Shown: positions 5,420 to 23,704 of the stretch, piece after piece
Layout of the letters: each line of letters begins with the position of its first letter
How positions within the stretch are numbered: the first letter of the stretch is position 1
Assembly (NCBI RefSeq): GCF_054482525.1
Contig: NZ_CM137006.1
Strand: one strand, 5' to 3'
DNA length: 64,000 nt
Position numbers and translations under genes: made by a program
Notes under the pieces: model-generated
Seen by the model: only the letters and a program-made list of their open reading frames with translations
Databases searched by the model: none
What the model was told of the DNA's origin: nothing

Positions 5420-6313
5420 ATGAAACCGCAGGTGTACCACGTCGATGCTTTTACCTCACAACCGTTTCGCGGCAATTCTGCCGGTGTTGTTTTCCCCGCC
5501 GATAATCTCAGTGAAGCGCAAATGCAGCTTATCGCCCGCGAATTAGGTCATTCCGAAACTGCTTTTCTGCTGCACAGCGACGACAGCGATGTACGCATCC
5601 GCTACTTTACGCCAACGGTTGAAGTGCCGATTTGCGGTCACGCGACAGTAGCTGCGCACTATGTCCGTGCGAAGGTGCTAGGTTTAGGAAATTGCACGAT
5701 CTGGCAAACGTCACTGGCAGGAAAACATCGCGTGACTATCGAAAATCACAATGATGATTATCGTATTTCACTGGAACAAGGTCCGCCGGGCTTTGAGCCA
5801 CCGCTGGAAGGTGAAGCTCGCACGGCAATTATCAACGCGCTTCATCTCACTGAAGACGATATTCTGCCAGGCTTGCCAATTCAGGTGGCAACCACAGGAC
5901 ACTCAAAAGTGATGATCCCACTGAAACCAGAAGTGGATATCGACGCCCTTTCGCCTGATCTTGCTGCGCTGACCGCTATCAGCAAACAGATTGGCTGCAA
6001 TGGTTTCTTCCCGTTCCAGATCCGCCCAGGCAAAAACGAAACCGATGGTCGTATGTTCTCGCCTGCCATTGGTATTGTGGAAGATCCGGTGACTGGCAAT
6101 GCCAATGGCCCGATGGGTGCATGGTTGGTACATCACAACGTATTGCCCCACGATGGCAACGTGTTGCGTGTTAAAGGCCATCAGGGGCGCGCATTGGGGC
6201 GTGACGGCGTGATTGAAGTGACGGTGATAATTCGCAATAACCAACCGGAGAAAGTCACCATTTCTGGCACAGCGGTGATTTTGTTTCATGCCGAATGGGC
6301 AATTGAATTCTGA
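5420..6313 (+). CDS. yddE: PhzF-family isomerase-like protein
   Basis: 297 aa; sequence and position (between narV and nhoA) match YddE. Confidence 0.8.
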   Translation: MKPQVYHVDAFTSQPFRGNSAGVVFPADNLSEAQMQLIARELGHSETAFLLHSDDSDVRIRYFTPTVEVPICGHATVAAHYVRAKVLGLGNCTIWQTSLAGKHRVTIENHNDDYRISLEQGPPGFEPPLEGEARTAIINALHLTEDDILPGLPIQVATTGHSKVMIPLKPEVDIDALSPDLAALTAISKQIGCNGFFPFQIRPGKNETDGRMFSPAIGIVEDPVTGNANGPMGAWLVHHNVLPHDGNVLRVKGHQGRALGRDGVIEVTVIIRNNQPEKVTISGTAVILFHAEWAIEF

Positions 6314-7986: not shown

Positions 7987-8051
7987 AGAATCATATGCAG
8001 CAACCAAGTTGCTTAAGCAATGTTTCAATATGAGTTAAAAGCATACTTTAT

Positions 8052-8249
8052 TTACGATTGTATATTTTTAGTGAAGATTAATTTATCCTCACCAATATCA
8101 TAGTAATTGCGTATTATAGCTTCATTGATAAAGCCCTGTTTTGTATAAAATGCGCGGGTGGCACTAAAATCGACATAGCTGGAGGTCTCTACTAAAAGTA
8201 GTCTTGCGTGATTGGGACAGGTCAAGAAAAAGCAGTTTTGCAGTTTTTT
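8052..8249 (-). pseudogene. Remnant of a GNAT-family N-acetyltransferase (C-terminal about 65 codons, no start codon)
   Basis: Minus-strand frame translates to ...LLLVETSSYVDFSATRAFYTKQGFINEAIIRNYYDIGEDKLIFTKNIQS*, resembling the C-terminal motif of GNAT acetyltransferases such as RimI; frame is closed by TGA just upstream and has no Met. Confidence 0.3.
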
Positions 8250-8377
8250 ATTTCAGGGCACAGTTGCGAAAATTGAATACCGTATGGACTAATGTGAGAA
8301 AATTCCGAGGTATGACTGTTTTGATATAGTGGACAATCAAGCGTCTCGAATTAACAATGAATTTCAGGTGCCAAGCC

Positions 8378-8623
8378 TTACAATTTGTAGCATGACGGAT
8401 ATAGGACAACATTAGGAAATCGGACAGAAAATTCATTATAATAAAATGACAACTTATCTCTTTCTCTCACGTTCTGTGAAATTTCACAAAAGTATAAACT
8501 GAGCCAATATGCCTTTATATATAAAAAATACTCATGTTTATTATTATCGGAAAAAGCCAAGATTTTGTCAAGGCCATCAAAAATATCTTTATCATGATCT
8601 ATATGTACTCTTGATGATTTCAC
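8378..8623 (-). CDS. Hypothetical 81-aa protein, unsupported ORF in AT-rich DNA
   Basis: Track ORF with GTG start immediately 3' of the H-repeat transposase; no recognizable family and no good ribosome-binding site. Confidence 0.15.
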   Translation of the reverse strand: MKSSRVHIDHDKDIFDGLDKILAFSDNNKHEYFLYIKAYWLSLYFCEISQNVRERDKLSFYYNEFSVRFPNVVLYPSCYKL

Positions 8624-9800
8624 AATACAGGGAAAGATTACGAAAGCCCGCTCCCCGCAAGGACTGACGCGAGATAGTTTCTGTCCATGGCTGCTTTTCG
8701 CATCTTACGTCTTAACCCTGCCTTGAATACCTTATCATTCGTCAAAATATTAATAGCGATGTGCCGTATCCCTGAAAATAATTCTGCGGCGTTTCCTCTT
8801 CTTATTTTGCAGTCGTCTTCATTCATTACCACGTCCAGACGCCAGTGCAGCTTATTCTCTACGTGCCAGTGATTTCGGATCGCTGTGGCGAACTTTTCTG
8901 CGGTTAAATCAGCAGAACTGATATAATATCTGACCGTCATTTCTGGCTCTTTCTTTTGTTCTGCTATTATTGACCGAAAAGAGACTGCCACGCATAATTT
9001 CTTCAGTCCTTTCCATTCAAACGTGAAATCAATAAGTTCATCAGGGACATCGCAAACAATATGAAGACGGATTTCTTCTCTGCCGTGACTCTTTTCACTT
9101 ATTTCGTAACTGTCATGCTCTGGATTATTTAATTCTTTCAGCGGAAATTTTCCCTCAAAGGCTTTATTTAGTCGTCCCTGATTTCCTTTTACAGCGAATA
9201 AATAATCACCGCCCTGTTTTTGTATCTTCTCTGCAATATCTTTCTGGCAACCCATCGCATCAGTTGTGATGATTTTTCCTTTAATATCCAGCATCTTAAG
9301 AAGTTCAGGGATAGCTGTAATTTCATTGGATTTCTCATCCGTCCTGATCTGTCCGATGACCAGACTGTGCATTGTTGAGAACGCACTAATGACATGAATC
9401 GCTCCCTTGCGGCGACTCTTGTCATAAGAGTGCCGGAGTGTTTTTCCATCAATTGAGATGACGTCTTTATCATCTGAAGAATGACAATCACGCATCCAGT
9501 TAATAAAGCACTCGTGAAATTTTGCAGGACTGATACAGGATACAACTCTGGCGATGGTATCGTGAACAGGAATACCATTTTCAAAATCACCATATTGTTT
9601 TAAAAAATCGAGATGTGTTTCCCCAAAATCCTCTATACCTTCCCAACCTTCTGCACCCGAAATAACGGCACAAATAGTCAACAGTAGAATATCCGATAAT
9701 TTATGTTCCACTTTCCAGGCTTGTCTGTAATCGGGGATAATAGAAATATGTTCCATCATTTTTTTAAGTTCCATTTTGTTCTCCTTAATTATGTAAGGAG
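8600..9800 (-). mobile_element. H-repeat (ISAs1-like) insertion element, approximate extent
   Basis: Transposase ORF plus short flanks; terminal inverted repeats were not identified, so the boundaries are approximate. Confidence 0.5.
8638..9774 (-). CDS. H-repeat-associated protein (ISAs1-family DDE transposase), apparently intact
   Basis: 378 aa with [18 protein letters not shown]... N-terminus typical of E. coli H-rpt proteins; ATG preceded by an aggag ribosome-binding site; Rhs-locus context. Confidence 0.85.
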
Positions 9801-10052
9801 TATTTGATCATGTATAAGCAATAAAAACAGCTTTAGGTAATGAGGAATATCTCAATTTTTAAACATAAAATGCGAATTATTTAGTACAGAAAGTGAACTT
9901 CTGATGATCTTTCCCTGCCCATTGGGTTCATTAAGATCAAGAATAATGGGAATATGCTCAAGAAGACTTTGAATGTTCACCAGACGTCCTTTTCTAATAT
10001 ATTTAATTATTTGGCGATTGAATTTTAATCAAATCAACAAGGTAAAACCAAG

Positions 10053-10084
10053 ATTAAAGTTGTGATGATAATCACAACTTTAAT
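10053..10084. repeat. Perfect 14-bp inverted repeat with 4-nt loop
   Basis: attaaagttgtgat gata atcacaactttaat, 36 to 67 nt 3' of the putative immunity gene; AT-rich stem, so not a typical intrinsic terminator. Confidence 0.5.
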
Positions 10085-10119
10085 GATCTTCCCCTGATTC
10101 CTCCAGTCCTTTTATTTGG

Positions 10120-21601: not shown

Positions 21602-23704
21602 ATGAAGATTTTTTCCGTCCGACAGACCGTTTTGCCCGCGCTGCTTGTCCTTTCCCCCACCGTTTTTGCCGCTGATGAACAGACCATGATTGTCAGTGCC
21701 GCGCCGCAGGTGGTTTCAGAACTGGATACCCCAGCAGCCGTTAGCGTGGTGGATGGCGAGGAGATGCGCCTAGCAACACCGCGCATTAACTTGTCCGAAT
21801 CACTGACCAGCGTGCCTGGTTTGCAGGTACAAAACCGGCAGAACTATGCGCAAGATTTACAGCTGTCGATTCGCGGATTTGGCTCCCGCTCCACTTACGG
21901 AATTCGCGGTATTCGCCTGTATGTTGACGGTATTCCCGCTACCATGCCCGACGGACAAGGGCAGACATCCAATATCGATTTAAGCAGTGTGCAAAATGTG
22001 GAAGTGCTGCGTGGCCCCTTCTCTGCCCTGTATGGCAACGCCTCCGGCGGGGTGATGAATGTCACTACGCAAACCGGACAGCAACCGCCAACCATTGAAG
22101 CCAGTAGTTACTACGGCAGTTTTGGCAGCTGGCGCTATGGGCTGAAAGCAACGGGCGCAACGGGCGACGGCACACAGCCTGGCGATGTCGATTACACCGT
22201 CTCAACCACGCGCTTTACGACCCACGGCTATCGTGACCATAGCGGCGCACAGAAAAATTTGGCCAATGCCAAACTGGGCGTACGCATTGATGAAGCCAGT
22301 AAATTAAACCTGATTTTCAATAGTGTGGATATCAAAGCAGATGACCCTGGTGGGCTAACCAAAGCAGAATGGAAGGCGAATCCACAACAAGCGCCTCGTG
22401 CAGAACAGTACGACACGCGAAAAACCATCAAGCAAACTCAGGCTGGGTTGCGCTATGAACGTAGCCTGAGCGCACAAGATGATATGAGTGTAATGATGTA
22501 TGCCGGAGAGCGAGAAACGACCCAGTACCAGTCAATACCCATGGCACCACAACTTAACCCGTCGCATGCGGGCGGCGTGATTACTCTGCAACGCCATTAT
22601 CAGGGGATAGACAGCCGCTGGACACACCGTGGCGAGCTGGGCGTTCCGCTCACGTTCACTACCGGCCTGAACTACGAAAACATGAGTGAAAATCGCAAAG
22701 GCTACAATAACTTCCGCCTGAATAGCGGCGTGCCGGAATACGGGCAAAAAGGTGAGTTGCGCCGCGACGAACGCAATCTGATGTGGAACGTCGATCCCTA
22801 TTTACAGACGCAGTGGCAGCTGAGCGAAAAACTGTCGCTGGATGCTGGCGTGCGCTACAGCTCCGTGTGGTTTGATTCCAACGACCATTACGTTACTCCG
22901 GGTAACGGCGATGACAGCGGTGATGCCAGTTATCACAAATGGCTACCTGCCGGTTCGTTAAAATATGCAATGACCGATGCCTGGAATATCTATCTGGCAG
23001 CCGGGCGAGGTTTTGAAACGCCGACGATTAATGAGCTGTCTTATCGTGCTGACGGTCAAAGCGGTATGAACTTTGGTTTAAAACCATCCACCAACGATAC
23101 AATTGAGATCGGCAGTAAAACGCGTATTGGTTATGGGCTGCTTAGTCTCGCATTGTTCCAGACCGACACCGATGATGAAATTGTTGTCGATAGCAGTAGC
23201 GGTGGGCGTACGACTTACAAAAATGCCGGAAAGACCCGTCGTCAAGGCGCTGAACTGGCATGGGATCAACGTTTCGCGGGAGATTTTCGCGTAAAAGCGT
23301 CCTGGACCTGGCTTGATGCGACCTATCGCAGCAATGTGTGCAATGAACAGGATTGTAACGGTAACCGGATGCCAGGAATCGCCCGTAATATGGGCTTTGC
23401 GTCGATAGGTTATGTACCGGAAGATGGCTGGTATGCAGGTACGGAAGCGCGTTATATGGGCGATATTATGGCAGATGATGAAAATACGGCCAAAGCGCCG
23501 TCTTATACTCTCGTCGGCTTATTCACCGGGTATAAATACAATTACCACAATTTAACTGTGGATTTATTTGGTCGTGTCGATAATTTATTCGATAAAGAAT
23601 ACGTTGGTTCTGTCATTGTCAATGAGTCAAACGGGCGATATTACGAACCTGCGCCCGGGCGAAATTATGGTGTGGGCATGAATATTGCGTGGCGATTTGA
23701 GTAA
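21602..23704 (+). CDS. yncD: TonB-dependent outer-membrane receptor
   Basis: 700 aa; signal peptide, plug and beta-barrel sequence, C-terminal ...AWRFE aromatic terminus. Confidence 0.9.
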   Translation: MKIFSVRQTVLPALLVLSPTVFAADEQTMIVSAAPQVVSELDTPAAVSVVDGEEMRLATPRINLSESLTSVPGLQVQNRQNYAQDLQLSIRGFGSRSTYGIRGIRLYVDGIPATMPDGQGQTSNIDLSSVQNVEVLRGPFSALYGNASGGVMNVTTQTGQQPPTIEASSYYGSFGSWRYGLKATGATGDGTQPGDVDYTVSTTRFTTHGYRDHSGAQKNLANAKLGVRIDEASKLNLIFNSVDIKADDPGGLTKAEWKANPQQAPRAEQYDTRKTIKQTQAGLRYERSLSAQDDMSVMMYAGERETTQYQSIPMAPQLNPSHAGGVITLQRHYQGIDSRWTHRGELGVPLTFTTGLNYENMSENRKGYNNFRLNSGVPEYGQKGELRRDERNLMWNVDPYLQTQWQLSEKLSLDAGVRYSSVWFDSNDHYVTPGNGDDSGDASYHKWLPAGSLKYAMTDAWNIYLAAGRGFETPTINELSYRADGQSGMNFGLKPSTNDTIEIGSKTRIGYGLLSLALFQTDTDDEIVVDSSSGGRTTYKNAGKTRRQGAELAWDQRFAGDFRVKASWTWLDATYRSNVCNEQDCNGNRMPGIARNMGFASIGYVPEDGWYAGTEARYMGDIMADDENTAKAPSYTLVGLFTGYKYNYHNLTVDLFGRVDNLFDKEYVGSVIVNESNGRYYEPAPGRNYGVGMNIAWRFE

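Follow-up and report, generated by a model that had tools for sequence, protein, structure and literature searches.

The 345 nt that separate the presumed immunity gene of an Rhs locus from the transposase gene of the neighbouring H-repeat (positions 9775-10119) are very probably nested insertion-sequence debris, lying at the 3′ boundary of the Rhs toxin-immunity cassette (we put the probability of this reading at about 0.88). On the minus strand, the immunity stop codon is followed by a 23-nt trailer, then by a left end of the ISEc26/yncI type, and then by the left terminus of ISEc1 (9917), its 143-nt leader and its transposase gene. The segment, which carries no annotation in RefSeq, is ordinary IS debris. 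An earlier note on this DNA had offered two readings of it, an orphan toxin or immunity fragment, or H-repeat terminal sequence. The second was right in kind, but two elements are present rather than one.

The window, i.e. the whole stretch of 64,000 nt that was analysed, is the E. coli chromosome at narZ(YWV)-yddE-nhoA-yddH and the rhsE site. In the segment in question, its sequence is identical to that of strain 1190. The features used below are the following.

8628-9917, minus strand: intact ISEc1-type H-repeat of the ISAs1 family, 1290 bp, delimited by its inverted repeats and by comparison with K-12
8628-8638 (plus strand) and 9907-9917 (minus strand): ISEc1 terminal repeats CAGGGAAAGAT
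8638-9774, minus strand: ydcC, ISAs1 transposase gene, 378-aa ORF, annotated as ISAs1 family transposase in strain 1190
9775-9917, minus strand: ISEc1 5′ untranslated leader and left terminal repeat, the part of ISEc1 that falls in the 345-nt segment
9781-9800, minus strand: 7-bp hairpin whose 3′ arm is the transposase Shine-Dalgarno AAGGAG, with a fold z of only -1.05
9918-9933, minus strand: 16-nt junction between the stump and the ISEc1 terminus
9934-10096, minus strand: left-end stump assigned to a second ISAs1-family element by BLASTN, alignments and peptide comparison
9978-9980, minus strand: GTG start of the truncated transposase gene
9987-9991, minus strand: ribosome-binding site AAGGA of the truncated transposase gene
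10053-10084, minus strand: perfect 14-bp inverted repeat with 4-nt loop, adjoining the stump terminal repeat on its inner side
10084-10096, minus strand: stump terminal inverted repeat CAGGGGAAGATCA, a second H-repeat end, oriented like the ISEc1 one at 9917
10097-10119, minus strand: 23-nt trailer from the immunity stop codon to the stump terminal repeat
10120-10464, minus strand: presumed immunity gene, 114 aa, a 345-nt "hypothetical protein" gene in strain 1190
10491-14645, minus strand: PAAR-Rhs gene with a Tox-WTIP C-terminal tip, from the ORF list and the strain 1190 annotation
15045-16856, minus strand: vgrG, upstream of the PAAR-Rhs gene

The last 159 residues of the PAAR-Rhs protein match PF15654 (1.8e-13). 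The presumed immunity protein, whose stop codon occupies 10120-10122, gave no significant match in a Pfam search and is placed in no family.

The element next to the segment is a complete ISEc1/H-rpt (ydcC, yhhI, ybfD). It has the CAGGG-initial terminal inverted repeats of ISAs1 elements at both ends (CAGGGAAAGAT), and a single transposase ORF (DDE_Tnp_1_assoc plus DDE_Tnp_1) in an element of ~1.3 kb; the N-terminus of the ydcC transposase matches PF13808 with 2.1e-15. The repeat is the core of a longer imperfect one, pairing 8609-8638 with 9907-9936. In K-12, the ydcC element (L006 6673-7963) is 1291 bp long and bounded by CAGGGAAAGAT and CAGGGCAAGAT repeats, and the sole difference from the 1290 bp of the window copy is an A-run shorter by 1 nt in the latter. 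When the segment 9775-10119 was used as a query against 5426 complete E. coli genomes, it was found at 22761 places in 5328 of them (median 5 per genome), nearly all of which span only query positions 1 to 143-151, i.e. 9775 to 9917-9925 of the window. Past the CCCTG, the flanks of the ISEc1 copies are unrelated to each other. Because the multi-copy homology ends there, the K-12 element has the same bounds and the flanks differ, 9775-9917 is the leader and left terminal repeat of ISEc1/H-rpt. The nucleotide comparison that the earlier note had advised for placing the IS boundary thus puts it at 9917. An extra 8 nt of similarity in some matches (CCCATTGG) was rejected as a part of ISEc1, as the flanks vary among copies. 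No direct target duplication was detected around the element (left flank ATTTCACAATA, right flank CCCATTGGGTT), which is consistent with a rearrangement after insertion.

Beyond 9933, the sequence belongs to something else. Judged by its sequence, 9934-10096 is what remains of the left end of another ISAs1-family element, diverged and of the ISEc26/yncI type. This stump comprises the terminal repeat (13 nt), the hairpin (14 bp), a leader, a Shine-Dalgarno, a GTG start and ~16-21 transposase codons. A 14-mer end motif, ATGATCTTYCCCTG (ATGATCTT(T/C)CCCTG), has exactly two occurrences in the 64 kb, for 0.02 expected: once at the ISEc1 end (9904-9917), and once at 10083-10096, directly abutting the hairpin. 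The stump repeat aligns with CAGGGCAAGATCA of ISEc26, and homology continues collinearly from the left terminal repeat (CAGGGNAAGATCA) into the leader. By BLASTN, the stump is 86.5% identical over 163 nt (E = 3.4e-45, window 10096-9934) to a copy in Superficieibacter electus (L014), and 70% identical over ~160 nt both to positions 1-160 of ISEc26 (E = 6.6e-19) and to K-12 yncI (E = 1.1e-20). In the alignment with yncI and ISEc26, read on the minus strand from 10096, the parts come in the order of the repeat CAGGG(G/C)AAGATCA, the 14-bp hairpin, the leader, AAAAGGACG, GTG and the codons for V(N/S)IQSLL.

All ISEc26-like copies conserve AAAAGGACGNCNGGTGA, and the annotated ISEc26 CDS begins at the GTG homologous to 9978-9980; in the copies of ECNB21 and MOD1, this codon is ATG. 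From the homologous GTG, the frame reads the N-terminal sequence of the family: the stump codons VNIQSLLEHIPII match the transposase N-terminus MNIQSLLDHISII, and in a BLASTP comparison the window peptide MNIQSLLEHIPIILDL is identical at 17 of 25 positions to the N-terminus of the Superficieibacter ORF. The latter is open for 87 codons and matches DDE_Tnp_1_assoc (PF13808) with 4.5e-30, and every database relative of it bears the name of an ISAs1 or H-repeat transposase fragment. For the N-terminus of yncI, the match to PF13808 has 3.9e-17.

The stump is a fragment and not a complete element: cut after ~16-21 codons at the ISEc1 terminus, it has neither a right terminal repeat nor a DDE domain. 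The intact ISEc26 of O157:H7 (L007 3032-4336) shares with it the repeat, the 14-bp hairpin, the ribosome-binding site, the GTG and the V(S/N)IQSLL codons, differs at three stem positions on both sides, and has the whole DDE domain and the right end that the stump lacks. A full-length parent of the stump lineage was found neither in E. coli complete genomes, plasmids and viral contigs, nor by a protein search or a pattern scan. In the complete genomes, the sequence 9921-10119 is present once per genome, and adjoins ISEc1 wherever the query spanned both. The plasmid search returned only ISEc26 itself, the viral-contig search 6 loci, none of the stump lineage, and the protein search only N-terminal fragments of at most 152 aa. 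The Superficieibacter relative came from the pattern scan, which did not use the hairpin and covered one genome per species (5 loci); it is itself truncated at 87 aa.

Together, the two left ends account for 306 of the 345 nt (9775-9917 and 9934-10096). Alignment of the entire segment to H-rpt ends, which according to the earlier note would speak against a separate fragment, is therefore found for most of it, but not for 9918-9933 and 10097-10119. The 16-nt junction is either the diverged codons 17-21 of the stump or filler. The nucleotide homology with Superficieibacter stops at 9934, the BLASTP alignment requires a 3-residue gap, and other haplotypes have other sequence in place of this stretch.

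The 14-bp perfect inverted repeat that the earlier note had described at 10053-10084, 36 to 67 nt 3′ of the immunity gene, was located exactly. Its arms, ATTAAAGTTGTGAT (10053-10066) and ATCACAACTTTAAT (10071-10084), are 100% complementary, and the distance from the immunity stop codon is 36-67 nt. Folding goes beyond chance: the 71-nt region reaches -26 kcal/mol on the minus strand (z = -5.6, none of 200 shuffles as good), and -18.8 kcal/mol on the plus strand (z = -4.3). Its position inside the stump's terminal repeat assigns the hairpin to the IS rather than to the immunity gene. The same stem-loop is seen inside the repeat in ISEc26, in K-12 yncI, and in copies from Shigella boydii, Superficieibacter and a Salmonella Kotte contig. 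Among such copies, four unrelated genes stand upstream of the repeat and hairpin, and fold z values lie between -4.6 and -5.7 in four lineages. The hairpin is gone in genomes that have a group II intron fragment in place of the inner sequence, while the immunity gene and the repeat stay. A counterpart in ISEc1 was looked for and rejected, as no equivalent hairpin follows its terminal repeat (fold z = +1.3). A search of 8400-10600 with the covariance models of Rfam 15 (E <= 1) returned nothing relevant. As a structural element, the predicted hairpin is conserved in ISEc26-like left ends.

In an alignment of 8 sequences, 87.5% of the stem cells are paired, versus at most 48% in slid controls. 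Three stem pairs are changed on both sides, i.e. compensatory, and one pair takes the forms A-U, G-C and U-A. Of the 14 unpaired cells, 13 are in two visibly decayed copies, which also carry an in-frame stop. The covariation score was reached by 2 of 500 shuffles, a count that is not to be read as a probability; the eight sequences are related, and two of them are decayed. Because the sample is small and related, the covariation of the stem is suggestive rather than conclusive. In the non-decayed copies, four G.U wobbles are seen on the transposase-sense strand versus one on the antisense strand, which argues weakly for an RNA structure on this strand, the one that also carries rhs and the immunity gene.

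What such a structure would do can be read in several ways. A simple terminator scan of the minus strand scored it as terminator-like, with 14 pairs, 3 of them G-C, and a tail CTTGGTTTTA; the stem, however, is rich in A-T pairs, and the U-tract is not continuous (CUUGGUUUUA). Most probably, the hairpin is a predicted terminator or insulator against transcription that comes into the element from its surroundings. Where it now lies, it would act as the terminator of the vgrG-rhs-immunity transcript. IS10 and IS50 guard their transposase gene from outside transcription by fold-back inhibition, and terminator-like structures at the ends are found in several IS families. The likeness to IS10 and IS50 lies in a stable sense-strand stem-loop at or abutting the terminal repeat, upstream of the transposase start. 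The difference is that their structure hides the ribosome-binding site, whereas the stump hairpin is terminator-like and lies about 70 nt (72 nt) before the start codon. No experiment on such protection in ISAs1 elements was found in the literature.

The hairpin might instead be a site acting at the DNA level, either a sub-terminal palindrome to which the transposase, or a factor of the host, binds, or a cruciform that transposition makes use of. We regard this as possible, if rather unlikely. In its favour, the hairpin abuts the terminal repeat, and symmetry kept by paired changes is what is expected if an element co-evolves with its own transposase; the right end of ISEc26 also has a hairpin, a weaker one, after its repeat. 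Against it, the four independent G.U wobbles fit only a sense-strand RNA, versus one for the antisense strand, a weak argument, and ISEc1 does without a hairpin next to a nearly identical terminal repeat (z = +1.3).

A terminator belonging to the immunity gene itself, or an AT-rich palindrome that arose by chance and has no link to the IS, is a very unlikely reading of the hairpin, even though the hairpin is terminator-like, lies 36 nt past the stop codon and sits in AT-rich DNA, which is rich in palindromes. The hairpin is inside the stump repeat, and not between the repeat and the gene, and it recurs with compensatory changes behind unrelated genes (ISEc26, yncI, L014 and the locus L024). 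Moreover, TUM13936-type genomes keep the immunity gene and have lost the hairpin, and among the 403 genomes considered below, none has the immunity gene and the hairpin without the terminal repeat.

Returning to the predicted RNA terminator or insulator, a broader proposal can be made, which is speculative and which we hold with low confidence. The hairpin would be a selected functional module of ISEc26-like H-repeats, and stumps made of the terminal repeat and the hairpin would persist behind type VI effector-immunity cassettes as operon terminator. They might also serve as a shared boundary, where cassettes are rearranged by H-repeats, and by a group II intron that targets the same 15-nt end. 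In the open-access literature, where work of the 1990s is thinly covered, no paper on the left-end hairpin was found, and the covarying hairpin of ISEc26-like left ends may be a new detail.

The variation between strains bears on how the two ends came together. The immunity gene, the trailer and the stump terminal repeat are found in 403 genomes, and in none of these does the immunity gene occur without the stump repeat. Beyond the repeat, several forms exist. The junction of the window is present in ~41 genomes, with ~163-179 nt of the older element kept. In the form of strain 2e (~316 genomes), the stump is cut at 9950 (147 nt kept), then come 90 nt of unrelated DNA, a filler that matched nothing among the compared loci. 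ISEc1 abuts position 9953 in strain 2012C-4502, which keeps 144 nt of the stump. In TUM13936, where the trailer 10097-10119 and the terminal repeat are both kept even with the hairpin replaced, the repeat is all that remains of the stump, and a 259-nt group II intron fragment follows it. Finally, K-12 keeps positions 1-1207 of the 1305 nt of the ISEc26-type element (defective yncI), ending exactly at the ISEc1 terminus. Across haplotypes, the other breakpoint is constant and is the ISEc1 left terminus.

These forms look like a deletion/replacement series anchored on the ISEc1 left end. The order of events that we infer starts with an ISEc26-like element, which would once have stood behind the immunity gene as yncI stands behind ydcD in K-12. 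Most of it would later have been lost in a rearrangement having the ISEc1 left terminus as its fixed endpoint, which could be an adjacent deletion mediated by an IS, or an insertion with a subsequent deletion. A simple insertion of ISEc1 into the older element was rejected, because a target duplication is missing and the older element does not resume past the ISEc1 right end, where BLASTN detected no ISEc26-like sequence in the window or in K-12. The conserved QQGK codons of the gene in the stump are similar to the ISEc1 end CAGGGAAAGATC. Microhomology was not adopted as the cause of the junction, since haplotypes have different breakpoints and a gap of 3 codons has to be assumed.

It is most improbable that everything up to the immunity gene is terminal sequence of one intact H-repeat, in a longer variant of ISEc1. 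Formally, such an element could be drawn, as 8628-10096 is bounded by inverted CAGGG(A/G)AAGAT repeats and would measure 1469 bp. However, thousands of copies end at 9917 with unrelated flanks, and the K-12 element measures 1291 bp. The additional part, 9934-10096, is homologous to ISEc26/yncI, with its own start and N-terminal codons, and 9918-10081 varies or is missing between strains that keep both ends. The 1469-bp unit itself is found at a single place per genome.

The earlier note had also pointed to a minus-strand frame lacking a Met start, and this frame is indeed present. It reads LKFNRQIIKYIRKGRLVNIQSLLEHIPIILDLNEPNGQGKIIRSSLSVLNNSHFMFKN*, is open over 9855-10028 (58 codons, stop at 9852-9854) and contains no ATG, its sole bacterial start codon being the GTG at 9978-9980. 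The frame is a composite, made of the older element's leader and first codons, followed by a read-through into the ISEc1 terminus. This terminus encodes QGKII in the phase concerned and has no stop for 22 codons, so that the last third of the frame (QGKIIRSSLSVLNNSHFMFKN*) is the ISEc1 end in an open phase. The frame therefore looks long because the stump runs into the ISEc1 end without meeting a stop. A Pfam search with the 42-aa frame, which is too short and chimeric, gave no match. The earlier note's proposal of an orphan toxin or immunity fragment was not borne out, the DNA being homologous over 163 nt to ISAs1-family left ends.

That 9918-10119 is such a fragment displaced by tip replacement has a negligible chance of being right: orphan tips do occur at this locus (strain 2e has this very tip-immunity pair orphaned behind another full-length Rhs) and the frame stays open for 58 codons, but it has no Pfam match, the nucleotide homology to ISAs1 left ends is collinear and includes the terminal repeat, the RBS and the start codon, the encoded peptide matches the N-terminus of a transposase, a third of the frame belongs to ISEc1 sequence, and no Rhs core or PxxxxDPxGL-type junction precedes the frame, none being present in any frame of the segment.

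As nested IS debris, the segment is best annotated as an ISEc1 end plus an ISAs1-family remnant; its open frame could otherwise be mistaken for a gene fragment of the toxin system. The 3′ edge of the Rhs cassette appears as a stack of H-repeat ends with exact breakpoints documented. That H-repeats and their remnants occur in Rhs loci, as well as at junctions of O-antigen recombination, has long been known (PMC3032704, PMC3715488). A fixed ISEc1 terminus combined with a variable stump length fits the long-standing view of H-repeats as elements that mark Rhs and O-antigen loci and remodel them (PMC3032704, PMC3715488).

The closest known arrangement is the K-12 rhsE locus, which occupies the same chromosomal site, between yncG/yncH and yddH-nhoA-yddE-narV. 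There, ydcD-yncI-ydcC has the same order and orientation as in the window: an immunity-like gene, an ISEc26-type left end with its repeat and hairpin, and the exact ISEc1 terminus. The extent of the older element differs, 1207 of 1305 nt in yncI compared with ~163-179 nt in the window, and the window has a full-length Rhs with VgrG, unlike the K-12 locus. With only 70% identity to yncI, the stump is therefore of a different lineage, travelling with a different cassette (Tox-WTIP tip). In K-12, the small ORF yncO starts within the hairpin, whereas the window has ATT at the position of that ATG.

Searching Rfam, a group II intron 5′ fragment (RF01999, 94.8 bits) was found at the left terminal repeats of H-repeats, which are insertion sequences of the ISAs1 family. 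It is located at the following positions:

L004 (E. coli TUM13936), 5742-6000 and 1897-2041: group II intron 5′ fragment
L018, 1-62: group II intron 5′ fragment
L024 (Salmonella Kotte contig), about 340-360: group II intron 5′ fragment

The fragment starts with GTGTGCC, exactly 15 nt inside three distinct left terminal repeats, CAGGGGAAGATCATT, CAGGGAAAGATCACT and CAGGGAAAGATCATC, each written up to the first intron nucleotide. This shared start within three different repeats suggests that the intron uses the H-repeat end as its homing site. The fragment is absent from the window, and in the genomes that carry it, it replaces the hairpin of the type found in the window (10053-10084).

Debris of H-repeats was also seen in other genomes. 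In E. coli ECNB21-M121 (L003, 11590-11713), a tiny ISEc1 derivative with an internal deletion lies upstream of a PAAR-vgrG cluster; in it, a right-end-type repeat is followed directly by the leader of the left end and codons 1-3, and it is another case of H-repeat debris near type VI cassettes. In the Salmonella Kotte contig (L024, 318-420), a stretch of about 100 nt upstream of the ISEc26-like left end contains a stack of three H-repeat terminal repeats, which are of differing types. The stack shows that these ends have been nested in one another repeatedly.

At the junction between ISEc1 and the ISEc26/yncI-type remnant (9906-9920 of the window), the codons CAG GGA AAG ATC of the ISEc1 terminal repeat read QGKI in the frame of the remnant. 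They resemble QQGK(I/V), a motif that is conserved in ISAs1 transposases at codons 19-22, and this likeness could be due to coincidence or to microhomology at the junction. The ISEc1 leader contains a 7-bp inverted repeat, CTCCTTA/TAAGGAG (window 9781-9800), identical in all copies seen. Because its 3′ arm (minus strand) is the Shine-Dalgarno of the transposase, pairing could mask translation initiation; the folding z-score was -1.05, which is not significant.

In K-12 (L006, 5320-5505), the small protein gene yncO has its ATG start within the yncI hairpin, on the 3′ arm, and runs outward over the terminal repeat into ydcD. In the window hairpin, ATT is found at this position, and therefore there is no yncO equivalent.

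The record of strain 1190 (L001, 8717-15059) is identical to the window, except that its annotation lists the genes for Rhs and VgrG as pseudogenes with frameshifts, whereas both are intact ORFs in the window (10491-16856). These frameshifts may be sequencing errors of the assembly, or true strain differences.

Beyond ydcC, where K-12 has pptA, this gene is missing from the window (7990-8627), and two ORFs take its place:

8052-8225: 57-codon ORF
8378-8623: 81-codon ORF, AT-rich

The latter had no Pfam match. At the position of the 57-codon ORF, strain 2012C-4502 carries a full GNAT acetyltransferase gene.
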